A stretch of DNA of 64,000 nucleotides from Candidatus Omnitrophota bacterium (GTDB taxonomy: Bacteria > Omnitrophota > Gorgyraeia > Zapsychrales > Zapsychraceae): positions 40,765 to 104,764 of the forward strand of contig JAGOSC010000001.1 in the NCBI GenBank assembly GCA_018062515.1, given 5' to 3'. The position numbers and the translations under genes were made by a program. The notes under the pieces were generated by a model that was not told where the DNA came from, made no database searches, and saw only the letters and a program-made list of their open reading frames with translations. Position 1 is the first letter of the stretch; every line of letters starts with the position of its first letter. Positions 16,231-44,400 of this stretch are shown here, one piece after another.

Positions 16231-16235
16231 CGCGG

Positions 16236-18625: not shown

Positions 18626-18805
18626 AAAAAAAGTTTAAGTAAAATTTCGAAATCCTAAATACTAAATTCGAAACAATACCTAAAATCCAAATGTTTTAAT
18701 TTTCTAAACTTTCTTTGCGTTATTATTTTTTCAAAAATTCGAAATTGTTTCGGAATTCGACTTTCGATATTCGAGATTAACTGGTTTATTTTCTGTCGAA
18801 CAATA

Positions 18806-20002: not shown

Positions 20003-20230
20003 CTATCTTATGCTGGACAATTGATCTTCCGTATTTATAACCGCGCCTAATATGAGTGGTAGATTTGTGATTGGGGTGACGTTGATAATGACCGGCATTA
20101 AACCATCATCAATTTGAATATTCTCAAAATTGTATACCTTATTACCCGCGTCAAGATTATTCCCTTGACCTCTAATTTCTAATTCCAATAAATCAAGGCT
20201 AAAATCAACCCCACCTGTAGGACTCTGCGC
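20003..20230 (-). other. Family C-terminal conserved domain of about 70 aa (P1 copy). The same domain ends P2 (34746-34990), P3 (38425-38700) and P4 (54757-55000).
   Basis: Four-way alignment by eye gives GG(I/V)D(F/L)NPxLLDL(E/Q)IxGxG - 20-30 aa - NIxIxxGxxP(V/I)IINxTPxTNxPxLLG, then a short acidic/polar tail. I do not recognise the domain. Confidence 0.7.
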
Positions 20231-23200
20231 AGCTCCAGATTTACTTTGTGAAAGGTCATTTGTCGTCGAAGCATTAGAAAAACCATTCTTTAAAGCGGGT
20301 TGTCTATTTATTATGTCCCTTTTTCCATTTTCAAATTTTCGGCTGAAATCTTTAAAATCTTCCGGAAACAATTGCGATACCATTTCAATACCTTCACTGA
20401 CCGTCATATTAGAAACTGCATTCTCAATATACTTCTTTCCGGTAATTTCCGTCCACTCTTTCGACGCCTCAACAAAGACATTTAATAATGGCCGCCCTGT
20501 CAACATAGCGCCTTTAAGGACCGGCTTTGCCGCGGGATATAATTTAGCCCATTTACTTTCCTTCATGGACAAATCGATATAAGCCGTCATCATTCTTTCT
20601 GCCATAGAAACAGAAATCAAACTTCCGACTACATCTTTTATCTCCGCGTCTTGCTTCTTGATCAATTCATTAATATTGTCTTCTAATATTTGTGGGCCGT
20701 AAATTTTGACTAACGTTAGCGCATCTTTTCTGAGCTTCATATCTTGAAATTTTATTTTTCCCATCAGACTCTCCGTCATCTTATAAACTGCTGGCTGCCA
20801 TAAGGAACTCAGGAAATAACGGTTTGTCTTTTCATAAAAATTCTTTTTTAAAATTTGTCTAAAATCCTGTTCCTGCTCATTGGATTCATCCCTCTCAATG
20901 TCCTCAACCACAATATATTTCGCCTGTTCTTGAGCGGCACGTACAGTATCTTCGTCGCTCAAGCTAATATACGACCCGATCGTTTGCAAAGTTTCCATGC
21001 CATTTGCCCAGTCAGTTGGAAAAAGATACATGGCCTGTGTAAAAGCCTTCAAGAAGGTTGAAAAATTCTTTGAAATGTGAGAATTTTTCACTTCAGATAC
21101 AGCTCTCATACTGATCATATTCATCGTCATTTTAAGATCAAACCCCTTATCTAAAACCTCCTGTATGCTCTCCAATGATATGCTCGTCATTTTCGATGAA
21201 GCGCTGTCAGTATTTATAAAAATAGTATCAATCCCTGTCTTTATAAGATCTTTTTCTCTTAATAAAAGCCCTTTAAATAAAACCTTGGCACCTTCGCTCT
21301 GTTTCTTATTTAATGTCCCAACGTTCCCTCTATCAATCAATACCAAGCCACCATCCGGGGTAATCATTACATTAGCCTGATGTAGGTCAGCATGGAAAAC
21401 TCCGTCGACAAATATATTGTGCAACAATAATTGACGTAATAATGAACGTAATTTATCGTAATCAAATTTCAATAGCTTTTCTGATAAACCGTTTAACTCT
21501 GTTTCAGAAAAGCCGGCTTTCTTAAGACCTAAAATAATATGAGCTTGCTTAGAGTCAAGCTTCACTAATTCACTATAAATACGCTTGGCTTCTAGAGGTG
21601 AATACCCCGCCTTTGTCACATCTTCAATAGAAACAGGGTTTTGATTAGGCGCAAGATTTAAAATAGGAATACCCTGAATTTCCTGTTCAACAATCAAAGA
21701 CTTGGTTGCGTAAAAAATCTTCGGATGAATCAAATGTACACCTGCTTCTTTTTGTAAATCTTCCGACCATGAATAATCTAAATCAGTAAGCATATCGGAA
21801 AATTTAACCTCATTCATAAAATCCATCTCAAGAGTGACCCACTCTTTTACCGTTTGGACTAAATCACCCAAGTTAATAGCTTCTCCTCTATATACGTCAC
21901 CTTGAAGATCTTCCGAGACGGATTCAAGTGTTGTAAAATCTGTATCTAAGGTTACTTCCATATCCGGACGTCTAATTTTATAGACAACCGGAACGCCAGC
22001 CTCTTCACGTTTTATCTTATATTGATTTGCTTTTGCGACAATATACGCCACCAGCCCGCTATTCATAATATCTTTACTTTGAAACAATGCCGATAACTGT
22101 GATCTTATTTCATTAGCCTCAGCCTCACTCTTAGCATTTTTGAGCACTAATTGGGATAATAGTTCAATATCCAACCATTTTCCTCTATTTACCTGCTTGA
22201 TCGATGCTACACCGACGGGGTTGTCCATTTCTTGAACAAAGATGTCACTGAACGGTATTTCATTCTCTAAAACAGAAAAACTCGCTATTTTTGTAATTTC
22301 TGGTGCGTTATTTCTTAAAGATCCCAGGTTAGAGCGCATACGTTTATCCGGAACTAAAGTTTCATTTTCCGATAAATATTGAGATACTTTAATACCGACG
22401 GAACCCAATACACCCAGAAAAACAGCTAATCGTTCTCCGACGCTGGTCTTTTCAAAATTCCCCTTAGCGCGTAATTGAGCTAAAGCCTTAATGACATGAA
22501 CCCGTCGATAAGCGGGAAATTTTTTCATAACAACCAAGAAAACTTTTTGTAGAAGAAGTCTCGCCTCACTTTCAAGACCGGGCATATTCTCCGGAAAAAT
22601 AAATATGAATGTCTTTTCCAAAAAATCCGACATAATTCGTACATCATTTTCATCTTGCGGATCCAAAACTCCATTATCCCCCAACATAAACCCTTCGATA
22701 AATTTATCCCGCATGGTTGACGGAAGCAGCTTCACATCACTTGGCAACGTTGTAAAATCTATATTTAATTTCGTTTCAGCATCCACGACAAACTTCGGTT
22801 TTTCCTGAGCCCCGACAACCCATAATAAAATATCCTTTCGCTCGTCCATTCTCGCCGCCCCAAAAAGATGCAGAACGGTTTCTGAAATAAAATCGTGCGT
22901 TCTCAAATCTTTATTCGGCGACAGCAAATTATTAACGTATAGCTCTTTAGTAATGTATGCCACCTCTTCTAAGTGCTTGACATATTTATTGGCGATCTGC
23001 ATTAACAAATCATCTCTGAGTATGCTGGGTTCGGGCATAAATTTTGTTAAGGCGTCAATATTGTCGGTTAGACCCAATTGCGTATTTTCGGGTAATTGTT
23101 TCCATAACATGTAAGCTGTTGCACCATAACGAGACGTTTTTTGGGGTGACAATAATAAAGGAATCATTGTTTGATAGAAATCCAGTAATTCATATATTCT

Positions 23201-26200
23201 TTCTGGTGCTATTTCTATCTGTTGATTTAATTTCTCCAAGCGCCCCACATCATCATCCATTTCTCCCAAAAGAGTCCACATATCCTGCATATCTGTTTCT
23301 TTCCCGGACACTTGACGGGCTAATTTTACCAAAGCTGGTAAATCAGCAATAATTTCAGGAAATACATCGGTTTCCCACATATCAATAACACCGTCTTTAA
23401 TGAGCGATTTATGAGGCATTGACGTTGTTAACCAGTTCAACCTTTCTGGGAGCGGCTTATAATCGCCATACACATATCCTTCGCCATGAATTTTTATATG
23501 CTCGTTTATGAGTCTCGTATAAACCGAAGAATTCTTAAAAAACTTTGCCATTATTTTCCGGTAGGGCACTTTCTCCCCACTCGTATGGTCCTTCAGAAAA
23601 CCGATTGGATCGTTGATAATTTGGTTACCAACATTCGGATTTTGCAATAATGGGACTACTTCTAAAAAATTACCTTGTAAATTATTTTTGATTATGTAAT
23701 TTTCCCATACCGTATCCAGTGTTGCGTTTGGAATAGCGACACCAAGTAAATTTTCTTTAATCTGCGCATATGAAATTTTACTTACATCATCTTTTTCAAA
23801 TTTAAAGTTCAGGCTTGTACTAGCAGAAATCACTCCGTCTTTGTTCTGAGAATAAGAAACCCTTAGCTCCATAAGATCATCCAGCCTATCCATACTATTC
23901 TTTTCCATCCATTTCGGATCACCCAATTTCTTAAACAGAATCAATGTCATTAAATTGGCAAAAAAATCATTGTATCCGGATAGTGAAAAATCTTCACCCC
24001 TATATTCAACTGTTGTATTAAGCGCCACATATTGTAATCTCTTTTTCAAAAGCTGCTTCAATTGATCGATGGATAAATTCGTTAAACTGGTTAGAAAAAT
24101 AGATTGATGATCATATTGATTATCATTCCAACCAAAATTATGAAGCGCGAATCGAGATATAATGGTCTTGAATGATCCTTTACCTTCTGCCTCAGGCATA
24201 ATACTCGTCTTACCTGATTTAAAATCGGGCGTCCCCTCGTCCTTTGAAACCCCGCGTGATTGATACATGTACACTCTTAAAGGTGTTGCAGCACTTAAGG
24301 TGGTCAAGGCCGAATAAATTGTTTCATCGACATAATTCTGATCACTCATTTTTCCAGACTCTTCCATCTTTTCACGCAACAAAGCTAAATAAACCTCGCC
24401 TGATTTTTCCGAAGCTTGAAATGTTTTTGACGTTTGACTAAAAAGGTATTCAAGCAGTGTACTTTGTAAATTCTTTAGATCTGAAATAGGCGCATCGTTA
24501 TCTTGATCTTTCACTGCCTTGAGATATTGCCTATAGATTACATCAGTAACCAATTTTTCGGTTAACTTAAGGGCGTCATTTTTGGAAAACATGCCTAAGA
24601 ACCATACAGCCACTTCTTGGGGATTTTGTTTAAACGAGCTGATAAAAAATTTAGTCAAACGTAAATTGACGTCCGACTCTAAAAATACACTTTCAAATAT
24701 TCTTCGACGCTGATCATAGTCAAGCCTATCTTTCATCCAAGAAAAAAGTTCAGTAATTGAAGCGTTTTCTGTAACAGAAACCTTTATCATCGATGCAACC
24801 TCATCAAAATTCTTATCCAAATATTCAGAAAGAGCCCAGTCCGGCAACTCTGATAAGGCTTTAAAAGATTTAATCTGCTTTTTATCCGGCATATTGTAGT
24901 CTAATCCGGTTTCATTTTGAAACGTGTCTGGCACATGCGCTATTCTTTCTAAGCGAGGCGAACTTATATCTTCTGTAGTATTTAGTTGGCTTGCCACCCA
25001 TAGGTCAGGGTCATTTTTCAGTAAAGAATCAATCGCATCATTATTTCTACCCAACTCAATATCAAAATATTTTTTCAACCTTTGACGCGCTATATTTAAT
25101 GCTTCTGACTTCGAATGTTCTCTTAGTAAAAGGTTATAATATTTTAAAAAAATAGTATCGAGATCCTGCTGTGACCCTCGAGTATGTAAATCAACACCTG
25201 GAAAAGAGCCATCTAAATAACGACTATTGATGTTTTTTATCGGCCTTTTTAAAATATACTGAAGAAGGATAATATTTTGAAGATTTTTTCGGGTATCCGC
25301 GGATTGAATATCGCGATATGAGGGATTTTGTAAATAAATGGAATTGCTTTTTTGTCGTAACTTTGCCTGAACATCCGTGGTTGGAACCTTAACATTCACG
25401 GACGGTTGTTGATCAATATATTTGGCGTAGAAAAAGGCAGAAATTAATTTCTTCGGATCTTTTATTGCCTTTTCAAAAATTGCTTCCGCTACGTAAGCTT
25501 TTTTTCCTTGCGGTAATGGCACCTTATTCCCTAAAATGTCAAGTCTTCCCGCATCTTTTGCATCTGTAAACATCGGGATCAATTCTTCAACTTCATTCAA
25601 GGGAAGCAAAAAATTATCAAAATCAGCGTCACTGAGGCTATTTTGTAGAGAAGTAATGGAATTTAATTTATTTAATAAATCCTTTCCGGAAGCAGATCTT
25701 CTCGTATCTCCACCCTTTTCTTTCGATTTTTCATAATCTCTTATGTAAGTTTCAACATCACCCTTTAAGTCTTTTAAAAAATCTCCATAAAAATCAGAAT
25801 CCTTACGTTCTGATACTTTGATTGTCTCATTATCTTGCCCGAATTCATAAATGGCAGCAGCACTTCTCATATCAGAATAATCAATTTTTTTATTATATAC
25901 ACTTATATCAAGCCTGCGTGTCATTGCTTCGTGAACCGCCTGTACATAAACGTTACGCAAAAAAGAAGTTTTTAAATCTTTTTCTTTAACTAAAGCTTTT
26001 AAGAAATTCATGCGCCTTCGCGTAACAAGCATTCCCGTTAATTCATCTAAAGCTGTGACGCTTTCTGCATTCTGTATCTGATCTAATAAATCTTGGTCGC
26101 TCGCATCCATAAAAAGTCGAAAATCAACGTCTTGACTTTTTATTTCTCCTTCTCCTGCCATATTTACTCGTGGAGCCTTGATATTTGTAAAAATATTTGT

Positions 26201-28264
26201 TTTTTGTTCATAAATTAATTGAGATAATTTATGTTTCCTGAGGCTTATGTAGGGATGCGAATCTAATATATTTTCGGCTTGGCTGGATTGTTGCATATAT
26301 TCCAGAAATCTCATAGCGTCAATGGCTCCTAGTACAGAATATCCCGCCTTATTCATCAATTCCAAAGCCACCATGTCTGCATCATATTCACCATTCTTGA
26401 TCATTTGCAACAAATAAGGCAAAGTCTCAGATCCATAAAAATCTCGAATATTAAGGCCGTAATGGGTGGTGTTTTGTATGGAATGGCTTAACTCATGCGC
26501 CATGACAAAGGCAATTGCATCTTCCGTAAGCGGAACGTTCATTTTCCCAGCGATATCATACAAAGCTTCATACAAACCTTTAAAGAAATATACATCCGTA
26601 CGATTACGTATCACAAATGCATTAATCTCATTTGAATCGATAATGCGCAACTCACCCGGTGAATCCTTGGTTTTTACTGTATAAATATCAATGAGGCGAT
26701 CAAATATTGTATGCATTTTTTCAGTAACCATATCGGTGTTTCGCGGTAATATGCCTGTATGTTCCATTTGCTTTTCGATCATAACAATGTTCCGTTCAAA
26801 ATTGGCTTCCACGTCGTCAACTGAGATACCCTGTTTTTTAGCAAGCTCCTCAATTAAAATTTCATCATACGTTTCATTCTTCTCAATTTTATATACAGGC
26901 TGTTTCGGCGTGGTTTCTTTTAGTTTTAAATTTTTGACAGGCTCTATTCTTGCTGCGGTTGTGTTCACATCTTTAGAACCAGTTAAGATCGCTGGATCAT
27001 TTACCGGAGGTAATTCTTCTTCCTGCCCTTCTTCCTCGTTAAATCTTTGTTTCATAAATTCATTAACCGTCTCCGGAGATATTTTTGAACTGATAAATGC
27101 TCCCGCAATGAAATGCCTTTTTGTAGCTTTATTTGTCTTAGCCAATTGTTCCTGGGTCACATTATCCGGCGTCACTGTCTGAAGCGGGACGATAATCTTG
27201 GTCAAAACCATACCGCCGGAAAAATATTTTCTGGGAATGATTTCCTGTGATACCGCGTCATATTCATCTTTGATATAATTATAAACGCCTTGTTTAAATG
27301 CTTCTAAATATTGCGCGTAAATTTTTTCTTTAGCGGAAGGATCATCAATCTCAACACCCCCGATTTTCTTCCGATCTGAAAATTTCTGATTCAATATACT
27401 TTGTTTCAGATTCTGTTTGTACCACTTCGCTAAAATCAATGAGTTATAGACTTGACGTAACTTGGAAAAATTTTTACCTTCGTTCACTTCTTTTTCAATT
27501 TCAGGTAAAATAATTTCCCGTATAACCTCAGATCCCAGTTTACTAGTATTTTGATTTTCTGATTCGCTTCTGCCTTTTAAACTTCTTTCATCGGTTCGGC
27601 TATGTTCCAATGCCACGTAATCTTCTTCCAACATAACCTTTAAATGGCTTTCAATAACATAGACAATATCGCCATTTTGATAAACTACGGCCTTTTCGGG
27701 AACTATCCAAACTTTATTAAATGTGTTAACAGGAACTTCAGTTGTTCCATATTCTTCCTGCGCACGTTGATAAATCTTCTTCCAAAATGCTTGTCCCAAG
27801 GCCTCTTCCGGATAAATTAATGACGCCGTCAATTGCTTTAAAATATAATCCTGGGCTAATAAATCGCGGCCCATTTCTGTCATACCAAATTCATTGGGTA
27901 CAATCCGATCCTTTTCATAGGGAGATAAATTCACCCATAGATCATCTTCTGGAATGGTTAATGAAGCCAAAAAATATTTAATTAACTTATTGGCCTCTTC
28001 TTTTAAGCGGTCGGGATTTAAGTCAACATCTCCGCTATCTAAAATGAAATCAAAATGAAAAGGATTATTAACCGCTATTTTCATACCGGTCAACATCGGA
28101 GGAATAAAGGCAGAAGTACGGGTAATCATCATACCCGGGAGAGGTAAATTAAGAACACTTTGCGCATAACTTGGCTGAGGCGGGACTACAAATGTCACAG
28201 CCAAAATAAGGCTTAGACAGGAAGAGAAAATTTTGTATAAGAAATGGTTTTTAAGCCGGGTCAT
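20003..28264 (-). CDS. Giant secreted protein P1 (2753 aa): signal peptide, family N-terminal domain, M48-type metallopeptidase domain, long helical region, UbiB/ABC1-type atypical kinase domain, family C-terminal domain.
   Basis: Uninterrupted 8.3-kb ORF. N-terminal signal sequence (LSLILAVTFVVPPQPSYAQS). HELSH...EYDAD (M48). ASIKQVNRG ... VYKIRRP ... EMDFMNE ... FHADLHQANVMITPDGGLVLIDRG (UbiB). C-terminus GGVDFSLDLLELEIRGQG...PVIINVTPITNLPLILG. Confidence 0.9.
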   Translation of the reverse strand: MTRLKNHFLYKIFSSCLSLILAVTFVVPPQPSYAQSVLNLPLPGMMITRTSAFIPPMLTGMKIAVNNPFHFDFILDSGDVDLNPDRLKEEANKLIKYFLASLTIPEDDLWVNLSPYEKDRIVPNEFGMTEMGRDLLAQDYILKQLTASLIYPEEALGQAFWKKIYQRAQEEYGTTEVPVNTFNKVWIVPEKAVVYQNGDIVYVIESHLKVMLEEDYVALEHSRTDERSLKGRSESENQNTSKLGSEVIREIILPEIEKEVNEGKNFSKLRQVYNSLILAKWYKQNLKQSILNQKFSDRKKIGGVEIDDPSAKEKIYAQYLEAFKQGVYNYIKDEYDAVSQEIIPRKYFSGGMVLTKIIVPLQTVTPDNVTQEQLAKTNKATKRHFIAGAFISSKISPETVNEFMKQRFNEEEGQEEELPPVNDPAILTGSKDVNTTAARIEPVKNLKLKETTPKQPVYKIEKNETYDEILIEELAKKQGISVDDVEANFERNIVMIEKQMEHTGILPRNTDMVTEKMHTIFDRLIDIYTVKTKDSPGELRIIDSNEINAFVIRNRTDVYFFKGLYEALYDIAGKMNVPLTEDAIAFVMAHELSHSIQNTTHYGLNIRDFYGSETLPYLLQMIKNGEYDADMVALELMNKAGYSVLGAIDAMRFLEYMQQSSQAENILDSHPYISLRKHKLSQLIYEQKTNIFTNIKAPRVNMAGEGEIKSQDVDFRLFMDASDQDLLDQIQNAESVTALDELTGMLVTRRRMNFLKALVKEKDLKTSFLRNVYVQAVHEAMTRRLDISVYNKKIDYSDMRSAAAIYEFGQDNETIKVSERKDSDFYGDFLKDLKGDVETYIRDYEKSKEKGGDTRRSASGKDLLNKLNSITSLQNSLSDADFDNFLLPLNEVEELIPMFTDAKDAGRLDILGNKVPLPQGKKAYVAEAIFEKAIKDPKKLISAFFYAKYIDQQPSVNVKVPTTDVQAKLRQKSNSIYLQNPSYRDIQSADTRKNLQNIILLQYILKRPIKNINSRYLDGSFPGVDLHTRGSQQDLDTIFLKYYNLLLREHSKSEALNIARQRLKKYFDIELGRNNDAIDSLLKNDPDLWVASQLNTTEDISSPRLERIAHVPDTFQNETGLDYNMPDKKQIKSFKALSELPDWALSEYLDKNFDEVASMIKVSVTENASITELFSWMKDRLDYDQRRRIFESVFLESDVNLRLTKFFISSFKQNPQEVAVWFLGMFSKNDALKLTEKLVTDVIYRQYLKAVKDQDNDAPISDLKNLQSTLLEYLFSQTSKTFQASEKSGEVYLALLREKMEESGKMSDQNYVDETIYSALTTLSAATPLRVYMYQSRGVSKDEGTPDFKSGKTSIMPEAEGKGSFKTIISRFALHNFGWNDNQYDHQSIFLTSLTNLSIDQLKQLLKKRLQYVALNTTVEYRGEDFSLSGYNDFFANLMTLILFKKLGDPKWMEKNSMDRLDDLMELRVSYSQNKDGVISASTSLNFKFEKDDVSKISYAQIKENLLGVAIPNATLDTVWENYIIKNNLQGNFLEVVPLLQNPNVGNQIINDPIGFLKDHTSGEKVPYRKIMAKFFKNSSVYTRLINEHIKIHGEGYVYGDYKPLPERLNWLTTSMPHKSLIKDGVIDMWETDVFPEIIADLPALVKLARQVSGKETDMQDMWTLLGEMDDDVGRLEKLNQQIEIAPERIYELLDFYQTMIPLLLSPQKTSRYGATAYMLWKQLPENTQLGLTDNIDALTKFMPEPSILRDDLLMQIANKYVKHLEEVAYITKELYVNNLLSPNKDLRTHDFISETVLHLFGAARMDERKDILLWVVGAQEKPKFVVDAETKLNIDFTTLPSDVKLLPSTMRDKFIEGFMLGDNGVLDPQDENDVRIMSDFLEKTFIFIFPENMPGLESEARLLLQKVFLVVMKKFPAYRRVHVIKALAQLRAKGNFEKTSVGERLAVFLGVLGSVGIKVSQYLSENETLVPDKRMRSNLGSLRNNAPEITKIASFSVLENEIPFSDIFVQEMDNPVGVASIKQVNRGKWLDIELLSQLVLKNAKSEAEANEIRSQLSALFQSKDIMNSGLVAYIVAKANQYKIKREEAGVPVVYKIRRPDMEVTLDTDFTTLESVSEDLQGDVYRGEAINLGDLVQTVKEWVTLEMDFMNEVKFSDMLTDLDYSWSEDLQKEAGVHLIHPKIFYATKSLIVEQEIQGIPILNLAPNQNPVSIEDVTKAGYSPLEAKRIYSELVKLDSKQAHIILGLKKAGFSETELNGLSEKLLKFDYDKLRSLLRQLLLHNIFVDGVFHADLHQANVMITPDGGLVLIDRGNVGTLNKKQSEGAKVLFKGLLLREKDLIKTGIDTIFINTDSASSKMTSISLESIQEVLDKGFDLKMTMNMISMRAVSEVKNSHISKNFSTFLKAFTQAMYLFPTDWANGMETLQTIGSYISLSDEDTVRAAQEQAKYIVVEDIERDESNEQEQDFRQILKKNFYEKTNRYFLSSLWQPAVYKMTESLMGKIKFQDMKLRKDALTLVKIYGPQILEDNINELIKKQDAEIKDVVGSLISVSMAERMMTAYIDLSMKESKWAKLYPAAKPVLKGAMLTGRPLLNVFVEASKEWTEITGKKYIENAVSNMTVSEGIEMVSQLFPEDFKDFSRKFENGKRDIINRQPALKNGFSNASTTNDLSQSKSGAAQSPTGGVDFSLDLLELEIRGQGNNLDAGNKVYNFENIQIDDGLMPVIINVTPITNLPLILGAVINTEDQLSSIR
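21030..22250 (-). other. UbiB/ABC1/ADCK-type atypical protein-kinase-like domain inside P1.
   Basis: Ordered family motifs: PVGVASIKQVNRG (A-S-I-x-Q-V-H-like), VVYKIRRP (VAVKVQRP-like), EMDFMNEVKF (E-x-D-F salt-bridge Glu), VHLIHPKIFY...LIVEQEIQG, and FHADLHQANVMI...LIDRG (F-H-A-D-P-H-P-G-N ... D-F-G equivalents). About 60 aa are inserted after the first motif. Confidence 0.6.
26290..26790 (-). other. M48-family (HtpX/BepA/Ste24-like) Zn-metallopeptidase domain inside P1.
   Basis: AFVMAHELSHSIQ (HExxH at 26483-26497) followed about 50 aa later by KNGEYDADMVALELMNKAGY, the M48 third-ligand E-x-x-x-(E/D)-A-D motif. Confidence 0.6.
27060..28264 (-). other. Family N-terminal conserved domain (signal peptide plus about 330 aa), P1 copy. 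Also at 37280-38357 (P2) and 49250-50334 (P3).
   Basis: Shared blocks: LNLP.PG, NPL.F.F, LIKYFLA.LT.P...LWVNLSPYEKD(R/K)(I/M)IP.EFG.TEMGRDLLAQDY.LKQ, YGTTEIPV.TFNK.WIVPE.A.VY, SHLKVML..DY.AL, NEGE.F..LRQ..NS.ILA.W(Y/F)K.NL, PR.YFSGG. Confidence 0.7.
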
Positions 28265-28364: not shown

Positions 28365-29054
28365 TCAAATCCGATCCGGAAAGTCAGAAAAAATTCCGTC
28401 CACACCCAGCTTTTTCAACCGGTCAATATCTTCCTTTTCATTTACCGTCCAAACATAAACCTTTAAACCGCTTTGTTTTGCGTCTTTTATGATTTTAGGA
28501 TCGGTCACTTTAAGGCTTAGATGAGCAGAATATGCCCGTATGGACTTGGCAAATTTAATAAAACCAAAGGGATGACGGGCTAATAAAGCACCTATGCGGA
28601 CTTTATGATTTAATTTAGATAAACGTTTAAGATTCTTTCGTGAAAACGTAGAAATGATAAAATGTTCATACGTCCATCCTTTTGTGTGGACATATTCTTC
28701 AATCAGCTTTAAAACCGGGGTGAGCGTAAATTTTCCCTTAAGTTCAATATTGATGCCGATGCGTTTATCAATCAAATCGAAAACTTCTCGCAAAGTTGGG
28801 ACTTGCTCTTCGTCGCCAGCATTTAAAGATTTAATGTAGGCCAAAGATTTTTTCCGGACCGCGCCTAAGCCGTTGGTCGTTCGATTAAGTTTTTCGTCGT
28901 GAATAACAATCACTTCACCATCGAGAGAAACATGAACATCCAATTCTACCATGTCCACGCCGAGTTCAATGGCTTTACGAACGGATTTTAATGTGTTTTC
29001 AGGAGCATAACCCTTAGCCCCGCGATGCCCAATCTTCAATAATGGTTTCGTCAT
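28365..29054 (-). CDS. Glycerophosphodiester phosphodiesterase.
   Basis: 229 aa; HRG...APENT, ELDVHVSLDGEVIVIHD, and E..KG motifs of the GDPD fold. Confidence 0.8.
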   Translation of the reverse strand: MTKPLLKIGHRGAKGYAPENTLKSVRKAIELGVDMVELDVHVSLDGEVIVIHDEKLNRTTNGLGAVRKKSLAYIKSLNAGDEEQVPTLREVFDLIDKRIGINIELKGKFTLTPVLKLIEEYVHTKGWTYEHFIISTFSRKNLKRLSKLNHKVRIGALLARHPFGFIKFAKSIRAYSAHLSLKVTDPKIIKDAKQSGLKVYVWTVNEKEDIDRLKKLGVDGIFSDFPDRI

Positions 29055-29527
29055 GGAAGTGGGATATTTTTTGGAATCGTACTCTCAAAGGGTTGCTTCA
29101 GAGACGACCACTCCGCGATTCCACCTTTGTAATGCAGGATATTTGTATAGCCTAATTTTATTAAGCGCTGGGCGGAATACTCACTCAACGGACAGGAACT
29201 ACTGCTGCAATAAACAACAATCTTAGCCCTTTTTTCGGGAAGAAAACTAAAAATCTGTTCATCCGTGGACTGACCAACATATAAATTAACAGCACCTTTG
29301 ATATGTTGAGAATCATAACTTTGTTGAGAACGAACGTCGAGGAGAATATAGGATTCATCCGACGCGTGTAAACGCACCATATCGTCATAACTGATTTCAG
29401 AAACCTTGATTTCCGTCGGCGCAGGGCTTTCGTCGCTGCATGGAGTATCCGCCCCGCAATCGGAATCGGCGTTAGACTGATAAGGACATACGACTAAAAA
29501 CAAAAATAAAATAATTATCTTCTTCAC
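29051..29527 (-). CDS. Secreted rhodanese-domain (sulfurtransferase) protein. The start is re-assigned to a GTG.
   Basis: Rhodanese fold: active-site Cys in VVYCSSSSCPLSE, then GGIAEW. The track ORF starts further upstream, overlapping moaD. A GGAGGG Shine-Dalgarno plus GTG (MKKIIILFLFLVVCPYQSNA, a signal peptide) right after the moaD stop is the more plausible start. Confidence 0.55.
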   Translation of the reverse strand: MKKIIILFLFLVVCPYQSNADSDCGADTPCSDESPAPTEIKVSEISYDDMVRLHASDESYILLDVRSQQSYDSQHIKGAVNLYVGQSTDEQIFSFLPEKRAKIVVYCSSSSCPLSEYSAQRLIKLGYTNILHYKGGIAEWSSLKQPFESTIPKNIPLP

Positions 29528-29528
29528 A

Positions 29529-29771: not shown

Positions 29772-29772
29772 A

Positions 29773-34745: not shown

Positions 34746-37700
34746 TTACGAGGAATGTTGATTGGCTACTTGTAACGGAACTTTATCAATAGAATTTTCC
34801 TGATCTGATTCGGATTCTCCCAAAAGCATTTGGATATTGATCACCGGCGCGACATTGATGATGACAGGCTGTATCCCTTCAATCTGAATGTTTTGAATTT
34901 TGATTGGATCAAACTCAAGATTATATTTAATTTCCGTCCCTTGTGTGTTTAATTGCATATGATCTGGATTAAAATCAATACCACCCAAAGGATCACCGGT
35001 TAAAGGTTTATCTTTATTATCCGTCGCGTTAGGATTCTTCTTTCTTCCTAAATTCTTAAAGCCCAGAGTCATTGCCCAGAACAGAAGCTGACTAAAGTGA
35101 ATAAGTTCTTCTCTGTCCTCATTTGATATATTTTTTTCCTCAATTAACGTGTCGGAAAAGTTAACAAAATCACCGTAAAGCAATGTCCCCGACGCAACGG
35201 CAATCAATATTTGTGAAAGAATTTTATCAAGATTCTTATTTTCAGAAACATCATAATTTGACAGGAACCACTGGATGACCGGATGATCAAGCGTTAATGA
35301 TTGACCACCAGAATTTTTTTCCAGAGCTTTCTTAAAATCCTGAACCATACTGTCATTCGCGGAATTTTCTAATTCTATATTCAACCTTTGAGAATTAAGG
35401 GCAATTTCTTTCATCTGTTTGACACTTAACGAACGCCCTATCGAGTCCACCGCTGCCCGCCAAACCTTTTCTTTTGCGCTCTGACCAAACAGTTGCGTAA
35501 AAATCAAATCATCATCTATAGTATGGGCAACGTTCATACTGTCACTATACGTGAGACCATTATCGTTAATATATTTCACCGCCTCAGGAGATATATTTTT
35601 CTTCAAATTTTCCTGAAAATCGTCATTTATAGGTTTTGGCAAGATGAATGGCGGTGTGATAGGAAACGATTTAAAGTCTTTATTATATAATTCAAACGCT
35701 GCTTGCTGGAGCAACTCGGGATACATGAGCATGTCATCAATCATTTCCCGAATCGTTTCCCCGTCCCTGGCATCTCGCACCTTTTTTGGTTTTAAACCTT
35801 TGACCCCTTTTTTCCGTAAAGATTTATAGACGGAATTAAAAATATAGGTGGCTACATAATCGTAAGGATTCTGATACCCATCATTCTCCTGTTTTCTTAG
35901 AATAATCCTCCCTAGACCGATTAAATCCAAAATAGGCCTTCTATTCTGCGCCATTGAATATAAATAAGCGCCCGTTTCATTAATAATCCTAATCTGTAGT
36001 CTGTCATCAAAGGAATCCCATAAACCATCATTAAGAGTTTTAAAATAATCTGTTCCGCTATACGAAGATGCGTCTCTAAAATACGCATGTTCGCCTTCAT
36101 GAACTCTTATATAGTTAATAATGTCCAGCTTGATTTCATCAGGCGACATCCCCGAAAAAGCTTCTCTGATTAATTGATCAATTCTGGATGATGTGACTGA
36201 ATCCGTTAATAAATAATTATTTCCATTTAACGTGTTAATGATATTTTGGGTTTCTTTATTTACATAATCCATATTGATAAAAAGTTCTCCATCCAGGTGT
36301 GCCCCCTGATGAGCAACCAAAGGATGGAATGGTAAATCAATTTTATTTACTTGCCGATAATAAAAAACTTTAATTTCTCTGCCGGCTAAAATAAATTTTT
36401 CCTCTTTATCCACCACAAATATGGCGATAACAGGAAGCATATCACCCGATTTTTTTTCGATTAGATCCATCCCCCCTAAAAAACCATTCCGAAGAAGGTA
36501 CACCTCGAATTCATCCCACTTCTTAAGAAAAGTAAAATCCTTACTTTTATAAAAAGCTGGATCCTCTTTCTGATAAGACATAACTAAATATTCCATATAC
36601 GCTTCTAAAGTTTCGGAAATATCTTTAGCTTTACGAACGAGATCAACTTCGAGCTCTCTGCGATTAGGAGATGAGTCAGTAACTGCGGTCATATACTTTG
36701 ACCAAACCTCTTCAAAAAATATCCGCAATTTTCTCGTTTCTTCTGATTCAATCATCCTCTGTTCCTGCCAATTTTTGTCATTGATGATATCCAACATCGC
36801 TTCTTTTAATAATCGGCCATTATCTTTTAAGGGGTCTTTTATTTCCAGCTTTGAAGCATCATAGGATGCAATTTTATAAAGATAAATAAACAGTTCAAAT
36901 ATTTTTGGATCATTTCCGAGATTTTTAAGATTATCCGAAAAATACTCTACGTCAACGGTCGTTTCTAAATAACGTTTCCACTCATTTATATCCGTCGAAA
37001 ACAAAAGAGGCTGCTCTGTCTTCTTCATATGCTCCAGGTACTGAGTTAGATCAGATAAAGCTATTTTTGTACTTTGCTGATTAGCGTGGTTGACTTCATT
37101 GACTAGAAAAACTTCGAGATTATCAGGCTTTCCTCCATCTTCTTTTTTATAATACTCTCCTGTTTGCGTAATCCCCAAAGCGACTAGCATCAGTGAAAAC
37201 ACACTAAAACTGGCATGGGTCGTTCTTTTAAGCCAGTTGACGGATGGTTTTTTATTTTCCTTACTGGTCAGTATTGCAGCATCTATTTTTGCCGCGTTTA
37301 TCCCCCCGGAAAAATACTTTCGAGGAATCATTTCCTGTGTTGTTGAATCGTATTCATCACGCACAAAATTATGTACACCCTTTTTAAATGATTCGACATA
37401 CTGCTCGTAAATTTTCTCGTTCCCATCTTTATCTTCAACCTCTAAACCTTTAACTTTTCCCTTATTAACAAAGATTCCACCTAATAAACTTTTTTGTAAA
37501 TTATGTTTGTACCACGTCGCTAAAATCATCGAATTATAAACTTGCCGTAAATTGGCGAATGTCTCGCCTTCATTCACTTCTTTCTCAACGGCCGGAATCA
37601 ATATGTTCTTCACTATTTCCGAAGACACGCCGCTGGTGATTTCAATATCTTCTTTTGTCACCTTGCCCAACCCGTGCTGTTGACTATTCTGATTATGCTC

Positions 37701-38357
37701 TAAAGCCAGATAATCCTCCTCGAGCATGACTTTAAGATGACTATCGACGACAAAAACGGTTGTTCCATTAACATACACATCCGCTCTTTCTGGAACAATC
37801 CAAATCTTGTTAAAAGTATTCATTGGGATTTCTGTAGTTCCATATTGTTCTTGAGCCTTCTTGTAAACTTCATCCCAGAATTTTCCCCCCAGTTTTTCGT
37901 CCGGATTCATTAATGAAGCTGAAAATTGTTTCAACATATAATCCTGGGCTAATAAATCCCTTCCCATTTGTGTTAATCCAAAATCAGTCGGAATAATACG
38001 ATCCTTTTCATACGGTGATAAATTCACCCACATTTGTTCGGATGGAACAGTAAGCGTTGTCAAGAAATACTCAATGAGCTTATTAGCCTCGGCGCGAAAT
38101 TCTTCCGAACCTTGAACTTTGTCGCCCGGATCGATAATAAAATCAAATTTCAAGGGGTTGTCAGGATAAATCGTAATGCCGGTGATGATGGGAGGATTAT
38201 AGGGCTGGCTGACTAGCACTGGTGTTCCCAGAGCAGGCAGATTGAGCACACTTTGCGCGTAACTTTGCTGTGGTGGAACAACAAACGTTACCACCAAAAT
38301 AAGGCTTAAATAAGCCGAAAAAGTCCTGAATATTATGTGTGTTCTTAGTTGACGCAT
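34746..38357 (-). CDS. Giant-family secreted protein P2 (1203 aa): signal peptide, family N-terminal domain, internal TM, HEGEH motif region, family C-terminal domain.
   Basis: N-terminus about 60% identical to P1 and P3 (LSLILVVTFVVPPQQSYAQSVLNLP..., WVNLSPYEKDRIIP..., HLKVMLEEDYLALEH). HEGEH at 36087-36101. C-terminus GGIDFNPDHMQLNTQG...PVIINVAPVINIQMLLG. Confidence 0.9.
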   Translation of the reverse strand: MRQLRTHIIFRTFSAYLSLILVVTFVVPPQQSYAQSVLNLPALGTPVLVSQPYNPPIITGITIYPDNPLKFDFIIDPGDKVQGSEEFRAEANKLIEYFLTTLTVPSEQMWVNLSPYEKDRIIPTDFGLTQMGRDLLAQDYMLKQFSASLMNPDEKLGGKFWDEVYKKAQEQYGTTEIPMNTFNKIWIVPERADVYVNGTTVFVVDSHLKVMLEEDYLALEHNQNSQQHGLGKVTKEDIEITSGVSSEIVKNILIPAVEKEVNEGETFANLRQVYNSMILATWYKHNLQKSLLGGIFVNKGKVKGLEVEDKDGNEKIYEQYVESFKKGVHNFVRDEYDSTTQEMIPRKYFSGGINAAKIDAAILTSKENKKPSVNWLKRTTHASFSVFSLMLVALGITQTGEYYKKEDGGKPDNLEVFLVNEVNHANQQSTKIALSDLTQYLEHMKKTEQPLLFSTDINEWKRYLETTVDVEYFSDNLKNLGNDPKIFELFIYLYKIASYDASKLEIKDPLKDNGRLLKEAMLDIINDKNWQEQRMIESEETRKLRIFFEEVWSKYMTAVTDSSPNRRELEVDLVRKAKDISETLEAYMEYLVMSYQKEDPAFYKSKDFTFLKKWDEFEVYLLRNGFLGGMDLIEKKSGDMLPVIAIFVVDKEEKFILAGREIKVFYYRQVNKIDLPFHPLVAHQGAHLDGELFINMDYVNKETQNIINTLNGNNYLLTDSVTSSRIDQLIREAFSGMSPDEIKLDIINYIRVHEGEHAYFRDASSYSGTDYFKTLNDGLWDSFDDRLQIRIINETGAYLYSMAQNRRPILDLIGLGRIILRKQENDGYQNPYDYVATYIFNSVYKSLRKKGVKGLKPKKVRDARDGETIREMIDDMLMYPELLQQAAFELYNKDFKSFPITPPFILPKPINDDFQENLKKNISPEAVKYINDNGLTYSDSMNVAHTIDDDLIFTQLFGQSAKEKVWRAAVDSIGRSLSVKQMKEIALNSQRLNIELENSANDSMVQDFKKALEKNSGGQSLTLDHPVIQWFLSNYDVSENKNLDKILSQILIAVASGTLLYGDFVNFSDTLIEEKNISNEDREELIHFSQLLFWAMTLGFKNLGRKKNPNATDNKDKPLTGDPLGGIDFNPDHMQLNTQGTEIKYNLEFDPIKIQNIQIEGIQPVIINVAPVINIQMLLGESESDQENSIDKVPLQVANQHSS

Positions 38358-38424: not shown

Positions 38425-41400
38425 CTAGGAATTAATCCTAGAATGCAGTCGTTTTGGGTCATCACTCAGGTGCTTATACTGGAAACTATACTCTGTTGGA
38501 TTACCTTCCTGATCGACGAGGCCTAGAAGAAACGGCATATTGGTCACTGGTGTTAAATTGATAATGACGGGAATAAAACCTTCGATATTTTTGAGAAGAT
38601 CGGCTGGCTGCTGCAACATCGGCAACGGGATACCGTTACCGTCACGTTTAATTTGAAGGTCTAAAAGCTCCGGATTCAAATCAATCCCGCCGGGGGTTTC
38701 AGGATTTTTGGTATTCGACACGGGAACACCATTAACTTTCATGTCCCCACCACTCCATCCATTGAGATACAGTTTATTTTTCCAATTCTTTTGTTCACGC
38801 TGAAACTCCTTCTCGGTAAAAATCTTTTCTCTATTACTTCCACGAGAATTTTTGCGAGGCGCTAATTTGATACCCTTCTTTTCCAAAGCTGTTTCCGCTA
38901 AACGAAGCATATATTTTTTTGCTAGCCATTCATCCCATCTATATTGGATCTTCTCCGGGTGGTCATTAGAATTTTCAACCTTTAGAAGTTCCCCACGAAT
39001 CTTCTTTTTAAGTTTTTTAAGCTTTTCTAAATCTAGTACGCCATTACCTTTTATTTGGAGAGCATGCACCCATATTTGCGCATCAATCCGATGTGCTAGC
39101 AATTTCCGGTCATGAGGCGATAAGACTGTCCAGTCTTCAGCTTTCAAATTCTTTAACTGAGCAAGTTCTCTTGCGTTTAACGAGAGCAATTCATGAGTTA
39201 TCTTAGCTAAAGTCATTTTTAACATTCGCTCAATTTCTACATTTATTAGTGGTTGTTCCTCGGGGTCTACATCAAAATTAATTAGATCTTCCCATTCGTT
39301 TTCATCCTGAAAATCAGAAATCATAGCGTGATCAATTTTTTCTTTAACGCTTGATAATATTTTAGTCCATCTTTCCGACGATGGACCGATAAATTTCTCT
39401 CCACTTTCTTCTTTTATTTTCGTTTCCTGAATGCGAGCGTTAAGAATGCTGACGACAAATGATTTTAACGGCTGTTGAGAAATCCATTCAATCAATTTCT
39501 CGTCCTGAATAGCCGGATTTTCTTCAATTAAATGATTTAATTTTGAATCAAGATCGCTAAATATATCCTTCAAGAATTTAGCTAATTTTTGCTGATCAAC
39601 CGGCGTGCTTTGGGCATCAAGATAATCTAAAATCTTATTTAATTCCGCCTTCTGCTTCTCATTAAAGGCATTCAGAGTTTTATGATCAGGCAGTTCATTT
39701 TCCTCCAAAACACTTTCAATGACCAGTTCAAGTAGGTATTGAATTTCTTGTTTAAGCATCAATTCCTTATCCGGCATTTTCGAAATTTTTTCAACGATGG
39801 CTAATGAAAATTCGACAAATCCGGACGACGACCAATTAGGACTAGAGGTAAAAAATATCTTAAAATCCTCATCAATTTTACTTAATAATAAAGTTAAAAT
39901 CTGGTCAGCACTATGATTCACAACTATTAACCGCGCATTAATCCTTTTAATGAGATCCTCTGATTCAGCTGATTTTCTTTTTTGTTCAAGCTGTAAACTA
40001 GTTAGACCGCTTAAATCACTTTTTAATGCCTCTAGTTCTAAAAGCGGACGATTCTCTTTTTCCAAATACCGTGAAAGCGGCAACTCAAGTACATAACTAA
40101 AAGGTTCATATTGATATTCGATTCCTTCCTGAGATAATTTAGTGAGGAGCTTTACGGCGCTTGATTCTCCGTGCGTATGGACCCAAATTTGTGCTTGTAT
40201 ACGTGATAAAACAATCGCTATGCCTTGCAGGCTGCCAGACACATTTATATCTTCGCTTCCTGTGAGACTATTTAAACCAGCCGAAACGACTGTTACTAAA
40301 TCTTTCTGCACTTCAGAATCCAACTTCTTAATATATTCTTGATAATTTGAAAATTTGCCTTTGTCATTTCTCAAACCATTCTCAAGCACATCATTAATTT
40401 TTGTTAACTCAGTACGAGTAAGTTGCGCCAACATGTTCTGAAAAATTTGATCTTCTTGCGTGTTTTCATTCTGGGATCCGAGAATTTTTGTTACAGTCAT
40501 CCATTCTTCCAAAGAATATTTTCCTGTTTCCACCGCCGTCGGTTGTTTTCTAACTGAAGCAGGATTGTTTGGTTCAGCCGAAGGCTCATTCAATTTAATC
40601 ATATCCTTCTCGGAAAATATTTCTTCATTCTCTAAGTCATGTTCATCATGCATAATCGCTGCTTCTAAAACATACAAAAGAGGTTGATGAGGCTCAATCA
40701 TAATTCCCGCGCGAGATGTTTCGATAAGAAGCTGTAAAACGCCTAATTTCTTAAGTTCGAGTAAGCGTTTTTGGGCTTTAAATCTTCTTAAAACAATATT
40801 CCACTCGACGGGTTTATTGACCCTTAAAACTCTAAGTAAATTCTTGGGATTATTACGCCACGTTTCATATCCTTGCGACTTTTCTACTTCCAGACTGTCG
40901 ATCCCAGTCACAATCGCATTCCGGTAATTTGTCTGCTCCTCAGAAGTGAACTGGCTAAACATTCCCATTAAAGCATATTCGAGGGTTGGTTCATCATTCG
41001 TGTTCCCAAGCTCCATGATTTTAATTAACATGTCGAGCTCTTCCACGTTCAATTCATTGAGTAGTTTCTTAAATTCTTCATCAGATTTTTCACCTCTTTC
41101 CGTTAAATAGATGGGAACCATTTCCCCCGACTTATTCTCTTTATATCGATAAATAATGTGAGGTGCAGTAAGAACAACATTAATGGCATACCATTCCAAA
41201 GGTGGACGGCGGCCTTGTTTCCTCAAGGCCATCTTTTTTTCTTCCGATGCATTCACCCAATCGTTCGTTTCAGATTCATACATTTGTAATGTTTTAATCT
41301 CAATGGAGGTTAATGTCTTGACTGGTTTTGATAATAAGTCCTTAATATACGCCTTTGTGACCATCATAGCCTGATCCTCATCATGATTATCTTTTTCAAG

Positions 41401-44400
41401 AGCAAATCGGAGCATAAACAATACAGCTTCCACCTCCTCGGGAGAACGCATTGAGTAACCATAAAGCGCGTCTTGAAATTTATTAAAAACACGTGATCTC
41501 AACTTTTCTAGAGTTTCAGTTTTTCTCTCAATTTGCACAAGCACCCATAATTGAGCGGTAACACGGTCTAATAAAATCTGCCATTCTTCCGGCGCGCGAT
41601 TCCCCTTTGTTCGCTGAAACCATTCTTCCGGAGATTCTTCTTCGATCTGCTTACTTTCTCGTTTCATTTTCTCAAACTCTTGATTTTTTACTAATTCACG
41701 GCCTTTAAGCCGTAATAATTTCTTCAATTCCTGATCTTCAACCATACTCCATTCTTTATGGTTTTCGAGCGCATTCTCAAGGTTTCTCTCAATAATATCG
41801 CTTAATTCGATAAGTTCATCATGGTCTAAGTCAGTTAATTGATGACTAAATATTTCTAACGGCTGCTGCAATAATGTATCCATTAGATCCTCAGTATTCC
41901 CTTCCCCACTCTGATGATTGGCTAATAGTTCACTTAACTTCGACCAATTTCCATCATTGACCTTTTGACTTTCATTCTTCATAGCATATTCAATCAATAA
42001 TAAAAAGGGATGACTATGTATCCATTTTAAATGTTCTTTATTGGCCATTTTTGGATTATTTTCTAAGTGTTTTTCTATCATAACCAAGAATTCGTCCATT
42101 GCTGCCTTAAACGCTTCGCTTAATTGCTCTCCAGAAATTTGATGGTTTAAATTTTTTACATAAAACAATAATTCTTGTATTTTAATTCTTTGTTCCTGGT
42201 TAATTTCTTTATGAAGCTCTTTCTCTAATGCAACTTCTGCAATATATTGGAAAACATATTTAATTGGATGTTCGATATAATTTTGTTCAGAAAGCTTTTC
42301 AAGAATAATCAAGGTGTTCTCAATAAATCCTGACACAGACCAAGGATCACTATCCTTTAGGGATTCAATTAAATCTTGATCAATATATTTTAAGTACAAA
42401 AACAACAAATCATTGAGGCTTTTTTCAAAAGCCGATAGGCGCGCATTAATACGCTCATCGATCATGTTTAATTGCTCTTTGGTTATATATTCTTGTATAA
42501 AATCATTTTCGGTTTCTGTTCTTTTTTCTCGCAGTTGTTCAGAATTTAAATTGCTCAATCCATCTGATAATTCATTCAGCGATTTTTCCATTTTTGACTT
42601 TGGAATATATTGAATATATTCTTCAAATTCCTTTGATAAAGACGCTGCAAGGATATAAATAAAAGGTTGATCCATCATAGGAAAAATATTTTCGCGGATA
42701 ATTCGTGTTAAAAATTTTACACCTTTTAATGTCCCATTTTGAAGCAGCCAGATTTGCGCTTCAATACGTTGAAAAACAATTTTCAATTTTATAAAATCGC
42801 TATCCTCGTAAGATCCTGACGAATTTATAAATTGATCATTTTTTAGACTATCTATACCAGCCTGGAGTAAGTTTGTAAAATTATCCTTCAATTCCGCGTC
42901 TAAACCATCAAAATATGATTCATACTCTAATTCTTGATCATAAGTTATGCCCATAATCGCAGGCTTATATATGTCGCGCATTTCAATTAACTGTTCAACA
43001 CTAAATTGATCCAACAAAGTTCTAAAAGTCTTATCTTCTTCTGTGTTCTTAACATTTAGAGGGCCAAGAATGTCGGTGATGATCACCCATTCAGTCGCTG
43101 TGTAAGACCCTAATTCGCGTTTACTCTTCTTTTCCTTTTTTTGTTCCGGTTTACTTTCGTTTCCCTTTTCTTCAAAGTCAGTTGCAATATCCGAAGTCTC
43201 CATCCACGTGAGGAAATGGTCACTAGTAAACACATCTTTATTTTCCAAATTGGCTATACCGTACTTAATTGCTCCCTCAAGAACATATATGAAAGGCTGA
43301 TTAGTGGAAATTTCAAAACCAAAACCACCCAAACTGAAAATTTCAGCTAAACGCTGTAAAGCGGCTTCACTACCCATTTCAACCAAACGAATTTGGGCTT
43401 CAATACGTTTTAAAACAATTTCCCATGCCTCTGGATTGTAGGAGCTTAAAGCCCTAAACCAATTATCGTCCTGTTCTTTTTTAGTGCCATGATGAATTTG
43501 TAAAGCTAATGTTTCTAGGCTATCTACCCCCGAAATAATGATATTTTTAAAATCCTTGGTTTGCTCAATTATTCTTTTCGCTTCTATATAGTCTCCGTCA
43601 TTCGCATTCTGCCCTAGTTGCATGACATACTTTAATCCATCCAACTCTATAGGACTCAATTTGTTTATTAAAGACTTGAAAATAATATCAGAACTTTGAG
43701 CATGTGGTGTTGGATAGTCAGGATGAAATTCTAATAATCCTTCACCATCGTCAAATAATAATATTTCATTTGGTGAATTAAGGACAAATCCTAAAGCATA
43801 CCATTCATCAGGCGGCCGACGGTTATTTGATCGAAGCTCTGAGCGTTTCTCTTTTGAAGTATTAACCCAATCGCCGGTTTTATATTCGTATTCTTCGAGT
43901 TGATTAATCTCCGTACCCAGTAAGTGTCTGATTGGTTTTTTGAGAAGGTTCTCAAATTTAGCCTTGGAAATCATCGCCTGATCAGCTATTTTCTCATCAA
44001 GAATTTTCAACCATTTTTGAGTCGGGCGAATATACGAAACAGCTTGCCCATTTAAGCTCGGTTGTGAATCCAGAGCCTTTTTAACCAATTTTTCCAAATC
44101 TTCAAGCTGAGGCTTCTGCATGACGGCTATTGTTTGCCGGAATAAAGCGTCATTATCTTCGTCGGATATTAATTCCCGCGATATGATTTCCGGTTCTGTT
44201 GAATTTTGCCTATTCGCCACGTCAATCAACTCTTTCATGCGGGAAATATTCCATGCGGAATCTATGTCAGAATTCTCTGCCTGCAGCGGCTCGATGACCA
44301 TCAGCCTTTTTATTCCCAGCAACGGCTTACGCAACATGTTAGCACTCCCGACATCGACGTTCTTGCCATTCCGCGCCCACAATTCAATAATCTTATTCAT

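Follow-up and report, generated by a model that had tools for sequence, protein, structure and literature searches.

Modular exported proteins, in which constant trafficking modules accompany a variable cargo, are already known in several forms. In two-partner secretion (TPS, type Vb), the exported TpsA proteins begin with a Sec leader, after which comes a conserved N-terminal domain of approximately 250-330 amino acids (aa); they are very large, poor in cysteine and variable downstream, and one targeting domain is common to many paralogues. The type IX secretion system (T9SS) of Bacteroidota also combines a Sec leader with arbitrary cargo, here together with a conserved C-terminal module of approximately 70-100 aa that many proteins of a genome have in common and that is confined to one phylum. 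Conserved N- and C-terminal regions around variable central effector or adhesive domains characterize the cysteine-poor MARTX and LapA proteins. LapA owes its attachment to the outer membrane to an N-terminal retention module and its export to a C-terminal signal. Layouts of this kind recur in a protein family encoded by four large genes, P1 to P4, in a stretch of 64,000 nucleotides (hereafter the window) from a Candidatus Omnitrophota bacterium (GenBank assembly GCA_018062515.1, contig JAGOSC010000001.1, positions 40,765 to 104,764 of the forward strand). Omnitrophota are uncultivated, ultra-small and probably predatory or parasitic bacteria. The family is built from two constant end modules around a variable middle, an undescribed architecture that extends throughout the phylum. 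Its constant parts, a signal-peptide-like leader with an adjoining N-terminal domain (N-domain) and a C-terminal motif (C motif), are read here, with doubt and confidence in about equal parts, as serving the export or surface display of the variable cargo between them.

The N-termini of P1, P2 and P3 align over approximately 355 residues. Identities by BLASTP were 56% over 358 aa for P1/P2 (E 8e-136), 55% over 344 aa for P1/P3 (E 2e-118) and 52% over 357 aa for P2/P3 (E 9e-114), a similarity far beyond chance. Together with the envelopes of a hidden Markov model (HMM), these alignments confirm the conserved N-terminal domain that had been proposed for the three genes in an earlier reading made by a model from the letters alone (the sequence-only reading). 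Every protein block named there was found in the alignment, whose blocks include WVNLSPYEKD..., TEMGRDLLAQDY, GTTE.P..TFNK.WIVPE, SHLKVML and PR.YFSGG. By its HMM envelope the domain measures approximately 320 aa; it follows a leader of approximately 35 aa and runs from about aa 37 to the PRKYFSGG block at about aa 351. All-against-all BLASTP identified a second shared region, absent from the sequence-only reading, in the last 70-90 or so residues of P1 to P4 (P1/P4, 47% over 89 aa). In P1, P2 and P3 the N-domain stands directly after the leader and the C motif lies within approximately 50 residues of the stop codon (Table 1).

Table 1. Positions of the four large open reading frames (ORFs) and of their parts in the window; the slash marks the predicted cleavage site
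Feature	Position	Strand	Extent and basis
P1 ORF	20003-28264	minus	2,753 aa
P1 leader	28157..28264	minus	aa 1-36; basic n-region, ~20-residue hydrophobic core, PPQPSYA/QS, small residues at -3/-1; translation and hydropathy
P1 N-terminal domain	27194..28156	minus	aa 37-357; HMM envelope E 3e-193; alignment; AlphaFold2 pLDDT 75.6
P1 variable cargo	20234..27193	minus	M48 metallopeptidase aa 514-599 (HELSH at aa 590) and ABC1 atypical kinase aa 2089-2339; Pfam, HExxH scan
P1 C-terminal motif	20021..20233	minus	aa 2678-2748; HMM E 1e-36; then tail ...QLSSIR
P2 ORF	34746-38357	minus	1,203 aa
P2 leader	38250..38357	minus	aa 1-36; aa 12-42 81% identical to P1 leader
P2 N-terminal domain	37284..38249	minus	aa 37-358; HMM E 1e-190
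P2 variable cargo	35004..37283	minus	no Pfam match; HEGEH at aa 753
P2 C-terminal motif	34794..35003	minus	aa 1119-1188; HMM E 4e-35
P3 ORF	38425-50334	minus	3,969 aa
P3 leader	50209..50334	minus	aa 1-42; diverges from P1/P2 leader
P3 N-terminal domain	49273..50208	minus	aa 43-354; HMM E 8e-183
P3 variable cargo	38707..49272	minus	~3,500 aa; no Pfam domain above threshold
P3 C-terminal motif	38497..38706	minus	aa 3877-3946; HMM E 5e-32
P4 ORF	54757 to beyond 64000	minus	>3,080 aa; N-terminus outside window
P4 C-terminal motif	54775..54987	minus	HMM E 2e-36; then tail ...MLSSVR

The size and distribution of the family were determined with the N-domain. In an exhaustive HMMER search of 1.84 billion cluster representatives (50% identity), 8,074 of them matched at E <= 1e-3; at E <= 1e-30 the number was 6,311. 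Among the matches listed, the N-domain started within the first 57 or so residues in 150 of 150 proteins, which ranged from 420 to 4,969 aa. A second scan, covering one genome per GTDB species, returned at least 547 genomic loci, nearly all in Omnitrophota metagenome-assembled genomes (MAGs). The best 80 of these loci were fetched, and among them single MAGs held up to seven or more copies, often in tandem; in addition, 140 representative full-length proteins were examined. P2 itself is contained in the global representative library (P0132), whereas an exact-sequence look-up of it in the contig collection returned no match. The family is found almost only in records labelled Omnitrophota, and the named matches come almost exclusively from Omnitrophota or Omnitrophica MAGs. 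A few bins carry labels such as 'uncultured Planctomycetales', Heimdallarchaeota, Pacearchaeota or Candidatus Elulimicrobium (L005, L006, L013, L024 and others; P0025, P0030; L003/L017), which are likely wrong labels or binning contamination. Mean pairwise identity of the N-domain across the family is 60% with a standard deviation of 5%. Given this narrow spread, a nonsynonymous divergence (dN) of approximately 0.33 and a saturated synonymous divergence (dS), the domain is under strong and uniform constraint.

The C motif comprises approximately 60-70 aa and follows the pattern GGIDxNP..L.L...G...I.GF.PVIINxTPxxNLPxLLG. Its family consensus reads GGIDLNP..LdLQikrdG.GiplP......lnI.GF.PVIINItPvtNLPlLLG, after which a polar or acidic tail of 1-49 residues completes the protein. 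The two modules are closely paired. Among the ORFs of the 80 fetched loci that combine an N-domain with a complete 3' end, 64 of 76 end with the C motif, which is also present in 108 of the 140 representative proteins. At E <= 1 the motif had no NCBIfam match, and at E <= 0.1 no relevant Pfam match. In a word-indexed database no homologues of the C-terminal module were returned, a result that may reflect a stop codon in the query or the limit on indexed length, as all N-domain matches there were 630 aa or shorter. Three of the exceptions, from three MAGs (L009, 3184-11065; L019, 9863-13785; L064, 16151-19105), consist of an ORF with only the N-domain directly followed by one with only the C motif. 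These pairs look like split genes that were frameshifted or interrupted, and they could be pseudogenes, assembly errors or programmed events. A further short motif, [QE][LV]S.[LIV][NRQ], was observed at the extreme C-terminus of 29 of 165 members (approximately 3 expected). Its carriers include P1 (20003-20020), P4 (54757-54774), L018, L006, L036, P0126, P0018 and others; P2 lacks it, and the P3 tail ...HSRINS matched a loose search pattern but lies outside the consensus. The tail could act as a signal, perhaps one read by a PDZ-type protease or receptor.

The leaders consist of two to three basic residues, a hydrophobic core of approximately 20 residues and the sequence PPQxSYA/QS. In P1 the hydrophobic segment spans aa 9-27 (Kyte-Doolittle hydropathy 2.02), and the family proteins of the window contain this single N-terminal segment and no other strong transmembrane segment. 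The tripartite (n-h-c) pattern of Sec-dependent signal peptidase I substrates, with small residues at -3 and -1, is recognizable by eye and by hydropathy, and the leader would be cleaved within the 'AQ' pair that is conserved family-wide. The sequence-only reading had described near-identical signal peptides in all three genes, with DNA identity of approximately 80% between the P1 and P2 leaders. For the P1/P2 pair the protein-level statement holds: aa 12-42 are 81% identical, which places the pair at the 99.9th percentile among 8,585 pairs of family members. It does not extend to P3, whose leader is 40% identical to that of P1 and 37% to that of P2. The DNA figure was overstated. Identity is 68% between 28150-28264 and 38240-38357, and only the best 60-nucleotide stretch (83%) and the best 80-nucleotide stretch (78%) come near or above the claimed value. 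Leader DNA is also no more similar than other conserved blocks of the domain, in which two 25-codon windows reach 79%. Leaders of the P1/P2 type recur in two proteins of the representative library for which no source is given, P0149 (74% identity to P2) and P0155 (71%). Because neither is orthologous to P1 or P2, the likeness of the two leaders is read as a conserved leader variant under protein-level selection.

A recent duplication or gene conversion in this genome had been put forward to account for the shared 5' ends, chiefly the P1/P2 leader. The contrast between this leader and the P1/P2 domain, which reaches only the 19th percentile of family pairs, is what such an event would produce, as is the 60-nucleotide stretch mentioned above. 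The synonymous sites argue otherwise. The proportion of synonymous differences (pS, Nei-Gojobori) is 0.76-0.80 for the three pairs, with 0.76 for P1/P2 overall and 0.74 for P1/P2 codons 1-40, all of which amount to saturation, and dN is approximately 0.33-0.40 with dS saturated. Of the 25 residues that are identical in the P1/P2 leader, 12 share their codon, where codon usage alone predicts 8.6; for the remainder of the domain the count is 51 of 107, with 48.6 predicted. The occurrence of the same leader type in P0149 and P0155 also speaks against conversion. In addition, the copies in the window are not each other's closest relatives. Their domain identities of 57-58% lie at the 17th to 26th percentile of the family pairs, they are no closer mutually than to copies in other genomes, and each is nearer to proteins elsewhere than to its neighbours in the window. 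The P1 N-domain is 64-67% identical to proteins of the global representative library, and the whole middle section of P1 has orthologues at 44-56% identity from other MAGs, in L002 (2,963 aa), P0134, L001 and P0121. Recent duplication or conversion is thus very improbable and was rejected on the grounds of pS saturation and the codon counts. The window copies are ancient paralogues under purifying selection.

The sequence-only reading could not name the N-domain and suggested a chaperone or usher-binding, adhesion or carbohydrate-binding module, any of which may apply. The searches of Pfam-A, NCBIfam and the sequences of the PDB likewise returned no family match that covers it. Nothing in Pfam-A covers the N-domain of full-length P1 to P3 at E <= 0.01, NCBIfam yielded noise only (E >= 0.07), and neither single-sequence nor 59-sequence profile queries found the domain among PDB sequences. 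The only recurrent signal in these attempts at family assignment was a weak DUF896-like helix. A DUF896/YnzC-like stretch was reported by Pfam for 16 of the 59 members scanned at E <= 10 (best E 5e-5), and an NCBIfam DUF896 match falls on aa 298-332 of P2 (approximately 37362-37466). One JGI annotation of a family fragment carries the DUF896/YnzC name. This similarity says nothing on function. The AlphaFold2 model of P1 aa 1-360 (mean predicted local distance difference test, pLDDT, 75.6; predicted template modelling score, pTM, 0.64) shows an alpha/beta arrangement with two long beta-hairpins and seven helices of at least 12 residues. Since comparison of the predicted fold with solved structures gave no match, the N-domain is a candidate for a new fold.

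The N-domain is conserved over its whole length, and its many invariant polar and aromatic residues (W110, N112, E117, Y140, K143, W161, W186, E259, R270, Q271, W281 and K283) would also suit a ligand or glycan site. The domain could then be an enzyme or an intramolecular chaperone (pro-domain), with the cargo or an envelope polymer as its target, instead of serving as a targeting module. However, no His or Cys and no Ser-His-Asp set is invariant in it, H207 varies within the family, and no enzyme family was matched by sequence or by fold. We consider such an activity quite unlikely.

The segments between the two modules have nothing detectable in common among the paralogues (all-against-all BLASTP), and the cargo of P2 resembled nothing in the fetched set. 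The visible part of P4 contains leucine-rich repeats (LRR) at approximately aa 1955-2170, and HEAT, WD40, ankyrin and HAD domains were found in the cargo of other members. The zinc-metallopeptidase motif HExxH occurs in the cargo of 26 of the 140 representatives, whereas shuffled sequences gave an expectation of 2.65. Three of the four cargos in the window carry it: P1 (approximately 26483-26497), P2 (approximately 36085-36099) and, with two copies at in-window aa 386 and 411, P4 (approximately 62753-62842). Only the copy in P1 is recognized by Pfam.

A property that all four proteins share is the depletion of cysteine. In P1 to P4 only 2 Cys residues were counted in 11,005 aa (0.018%), both within leaders, compared with 96 in the 8,804 residues of 25 other ORFs of the window (1.09%). 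Family-wide the proportion is 0.084%, and 69 of the 140 representative proteins have no Cys after aa 40. Such scarcity of cysteine is a known feature of proteins that have to remain unfolded, free of disulfide bonds, while they pass through the outer membrane, among them autotransporter passengers, TpsA and RTX proteins.

These properties can be combined into a mechanism for the export or display of the cargo. The leader would take an unfolded, cysteine-free polypeptide through Sec, and the N-domain and C motif would be the parts recognized by a shared envelope machinery. The outcome might be passage of the protein through the outer membrane, its retention there, or both. The cargo, with its metallopeptidases, kinase, LRR, ankyrin, HEAT and WD40 parts, would then perform the function particular to each paralogue, either on the cell surface or inside a host or prey cell. 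A more far-reaching version is put forward tentatively, as a possibility that we rate well below an even chance. Both modules could form the two-part signal of an undescribed, Omnitrophota-specific outer-membrane secretion or attachment pathway that delivers cysteine-free effectors and adhesins, hundreds of them in each lineage and among them the eukaryote-like LRR, ankyrin, HEAT, WD40 and kinase proteins, to the host or prey.

The possible relation between the two modules was explored with a natural minimal member. P0093, whose complete gene lies on contigs of 32-44 kb, has 438 aa and is made up only of leader, N-domain, a 15-aa linker and C motif, without any cargo. It stands in tandem with a 1,110-aa family member, and its neighbourhood showed only that member. 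The AlphaFold2 model of P0093, computed with a 60-sequence full-length alignment, reached a pLDDT of 78.3 and a pTM of 0.79, and the C motif (aa 371-410) was modelled at pLDDT 79-94. The part of the N-domain that is most strongly conserved in sequence (WVNLSPYEKDRI...TEMGRDLLAQDY; aa 100-130) has pLDDT 88-95 in this model, whereas the same block in the N-domain-only model of P1 (aa 104-129, approximately 27878-27955) has 49-58. The higher values in the presence of the C motif are compatible with the two modules packing together.

Contact of this kind would also be expected if the N-domain and C motif bound each other head to tail between molecules, or looped each molecule, and the family thereby polymerized into a surface coat or fibre that displays the cargo. 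The almost obligatory co-occurrence of the modules, the existence of a member with both modules and no cargo, the pTM of its model and the confident prediction of the conserved block only together with the C motif would all fit such an assembly. The Omnitrophota member Velamenicoccus has moreover been described as 'coated'. Nevertheless, an underpowered analysis gave no coupling signal between the columns of the N-domain and those of the C motif, and an assembly held together by the two modules appears improbable.

Several observations weigh against export or display of the cargo. The difference in pLDDT could come from the differing query and alignment of the two models. In a mean-field direct-coupling analysis of 165 pairs of N-domain and C motif (effective number 153), which was underpowered, only 5 of the top 60 couplings linked the modules, below the random share. 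The neighbours in the window encode haem synthesis, cytochrome c maturation and ATP synthase, and no secretion or anchoring machinery adjoins the large genes. When the flanking ORFs of the 80 loci were compared all against all, no family occurred in more than 10 loci; the most frequent one was a response-regulator/EAL protein. A distant transporter gene is possible. Finally, ABC1 kinase, HAD, WD40 and HEAT domains are usually cytoplasmic, which fits delivery into another cell and equally a non-secreted role.

The single N-terminal hydrophobic segment and the lack of dedicated secretion genes nearby could also be explained if the leader were an uncleaved signal anchor. The proteins would then be inner-membrane-tethered periplasmic scaffolds or enzymes with the N-domain as a membrane-proximal assembly domain, and nothing would be secreted. 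The small residues at -3 and -1 and the conserved 'AQ' fit a signal-peptidase site instead, and a signal anchor explains neither the conserved module at the extreme C-terminus nor the near-total loss of cysteine. Many copies of proteins of 1,000-5,000 aa would also be hard to fit into the periplasm of ultra-small cells. For these reasons an uncleaved anchor is regarded as unlikely, and export or surface display is retained as the favoured explanation.

The likeness to the described systems has clear limits. Neither Pfam nor NCBIfam models of the TPS/haemagglutination-activity domain matched, and TPS domains are right-handed beta-helices, whereas the N-domain is predicted to be alpha/beta with long helices. 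No Omp85/TpsB gene adjoins the genes here, and TpsA proteins have no C-terminal motif of this kind. The C motif did not match the T9SS models Por_Secre_tail and CHU_C, and T9SS cargo, found in another phylum, has no common N-terminal domain. MARTX and LapA proteins lack a Sec leader and use RTX repeats and type I signals; the family described here has a signal-peptide-like leader and no match to RTX or related Pfam models. Sorting by PEP-CTERM/exosortase or LPXTG/sortase differs in that the conserved PVIINxTPxxNLPxLLG is followed by the acidic or polar tail of 1-49 residues and not by a helix with Arg/Lys, and no NCBIfam sorting domain was matched. Classical autotransporters (type Va) end in a beta-barrel of approximately 250-300 aa, compared with a module of only approximately 60-70 aa here, and no autotransporter Pfam match was found. 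In its mode of working the N-domain would resemble the TPS domains and also those of the TANFOR polymorphic toxins of Bacteroidetes, whose export was itself inferred and not shown (Jana, Salomon & Bosis 2020, PMC7073777). TANFOR proteins carry toxin domains at the C-terminus, are accompanied by adjacent immunity genes and number at most 5 per genome and 339 in all (PMC7073777). In contrast, the present family gave no NCBIfam or Pfam match to them, ends in a constant motif, shows no obvious immunity genes and is far larger.

Within the phylum, giant proteins ('archaeovorins', dockerin-type) have been reported whose N-terminal regions 'generally lack identifiable domains' (West-Roberts et al. 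2023, bioRxiv 10.1101/2023.11.21.568195). Like the family studied here they are very long, mostly unannotated and putatively located at the surface or outside the cell. They differ in exceeding 30,000 aa, in having many transmembrane helices and SecA-like domains and in adjoining loci related to the type II secretion system or Tad, whereas the family members among the sequences examined have 438-4,969 aa, one N-terminal hydrophobic segment and no such neighbours. The N-domain is not described in the papers on Omnitrophota giant genes, and term searches of the 2026 complete-genome preprint and of Seymour et al. 2023 turned up no reference to it.

In work on how Omnitrophota interact with their hosts, attention has so far been directed to a handful of giant genes in which hardly any domain can be recognized. 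The N-domain and C motif provide a simple sequence handle for listing the candidate surface and secreted repertoire of any Omnitrophota genome. Should the modules be targeting signals, they would point to an undescribed envelope pathway, and if such a pathway indeed operates, the family would supply the principal set of effectors of these ultra-small predators or parasites. As a candidate use, the N-domain could also reveal Omnitrophota DNA in wrongly binned MAGs, for which it would be a near-diagnostic marker.

All gene-like ORFs of at least 150 aa in the window lie on the minus strand, G+C content ranges from 34 to 43% across it, and P1 to P4 together occupy approximately half of its 64 kb. 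The genes between them include the ATP synthase operon, a cytochrome bc-type complex (Rieske/cytochrome b), a multihaem cytochrome c of 979 aa, CcsA/ResB, GlutR, ferrochelatase, a protoporphyrinogen oxidase-like protein (HemY-like), URO-D, HemN, DAHP synthase, GDPD, rhodanese and MoeA. This respiratory and haem gene set is interleaved with the large genes at 1-19846, 28365-34637 and 50546-54684. Omnitrophota have been described as possessing an incomplete electron transport chain, and so coherent a set of respiratory and haem genes is notable in this light.

P4 runs out of the window, and neither an exact 40-mer scan nor a protein-pattern scan of metagenome contigs produced a match for its N-terminus. 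Over 1,651 alignment columns its cargo shares 31% identity with the L057 protein (3,263 aa), in which both modules are present, and the first in-window residue of P4 aligns to residue 1,372 of that protein. Because of this alignment, P4 probably has at least 4,400 aa and starts with the same N-domain, and it almost certainly belongs to the two-module family. The visible N-terminal part of P4 (62500-63999, minus strand) also contains a Walker-A-like GPSGQGKD, which suggests an AAA/MoxR-like ATPase, but this segment is detected by no Pfam model.

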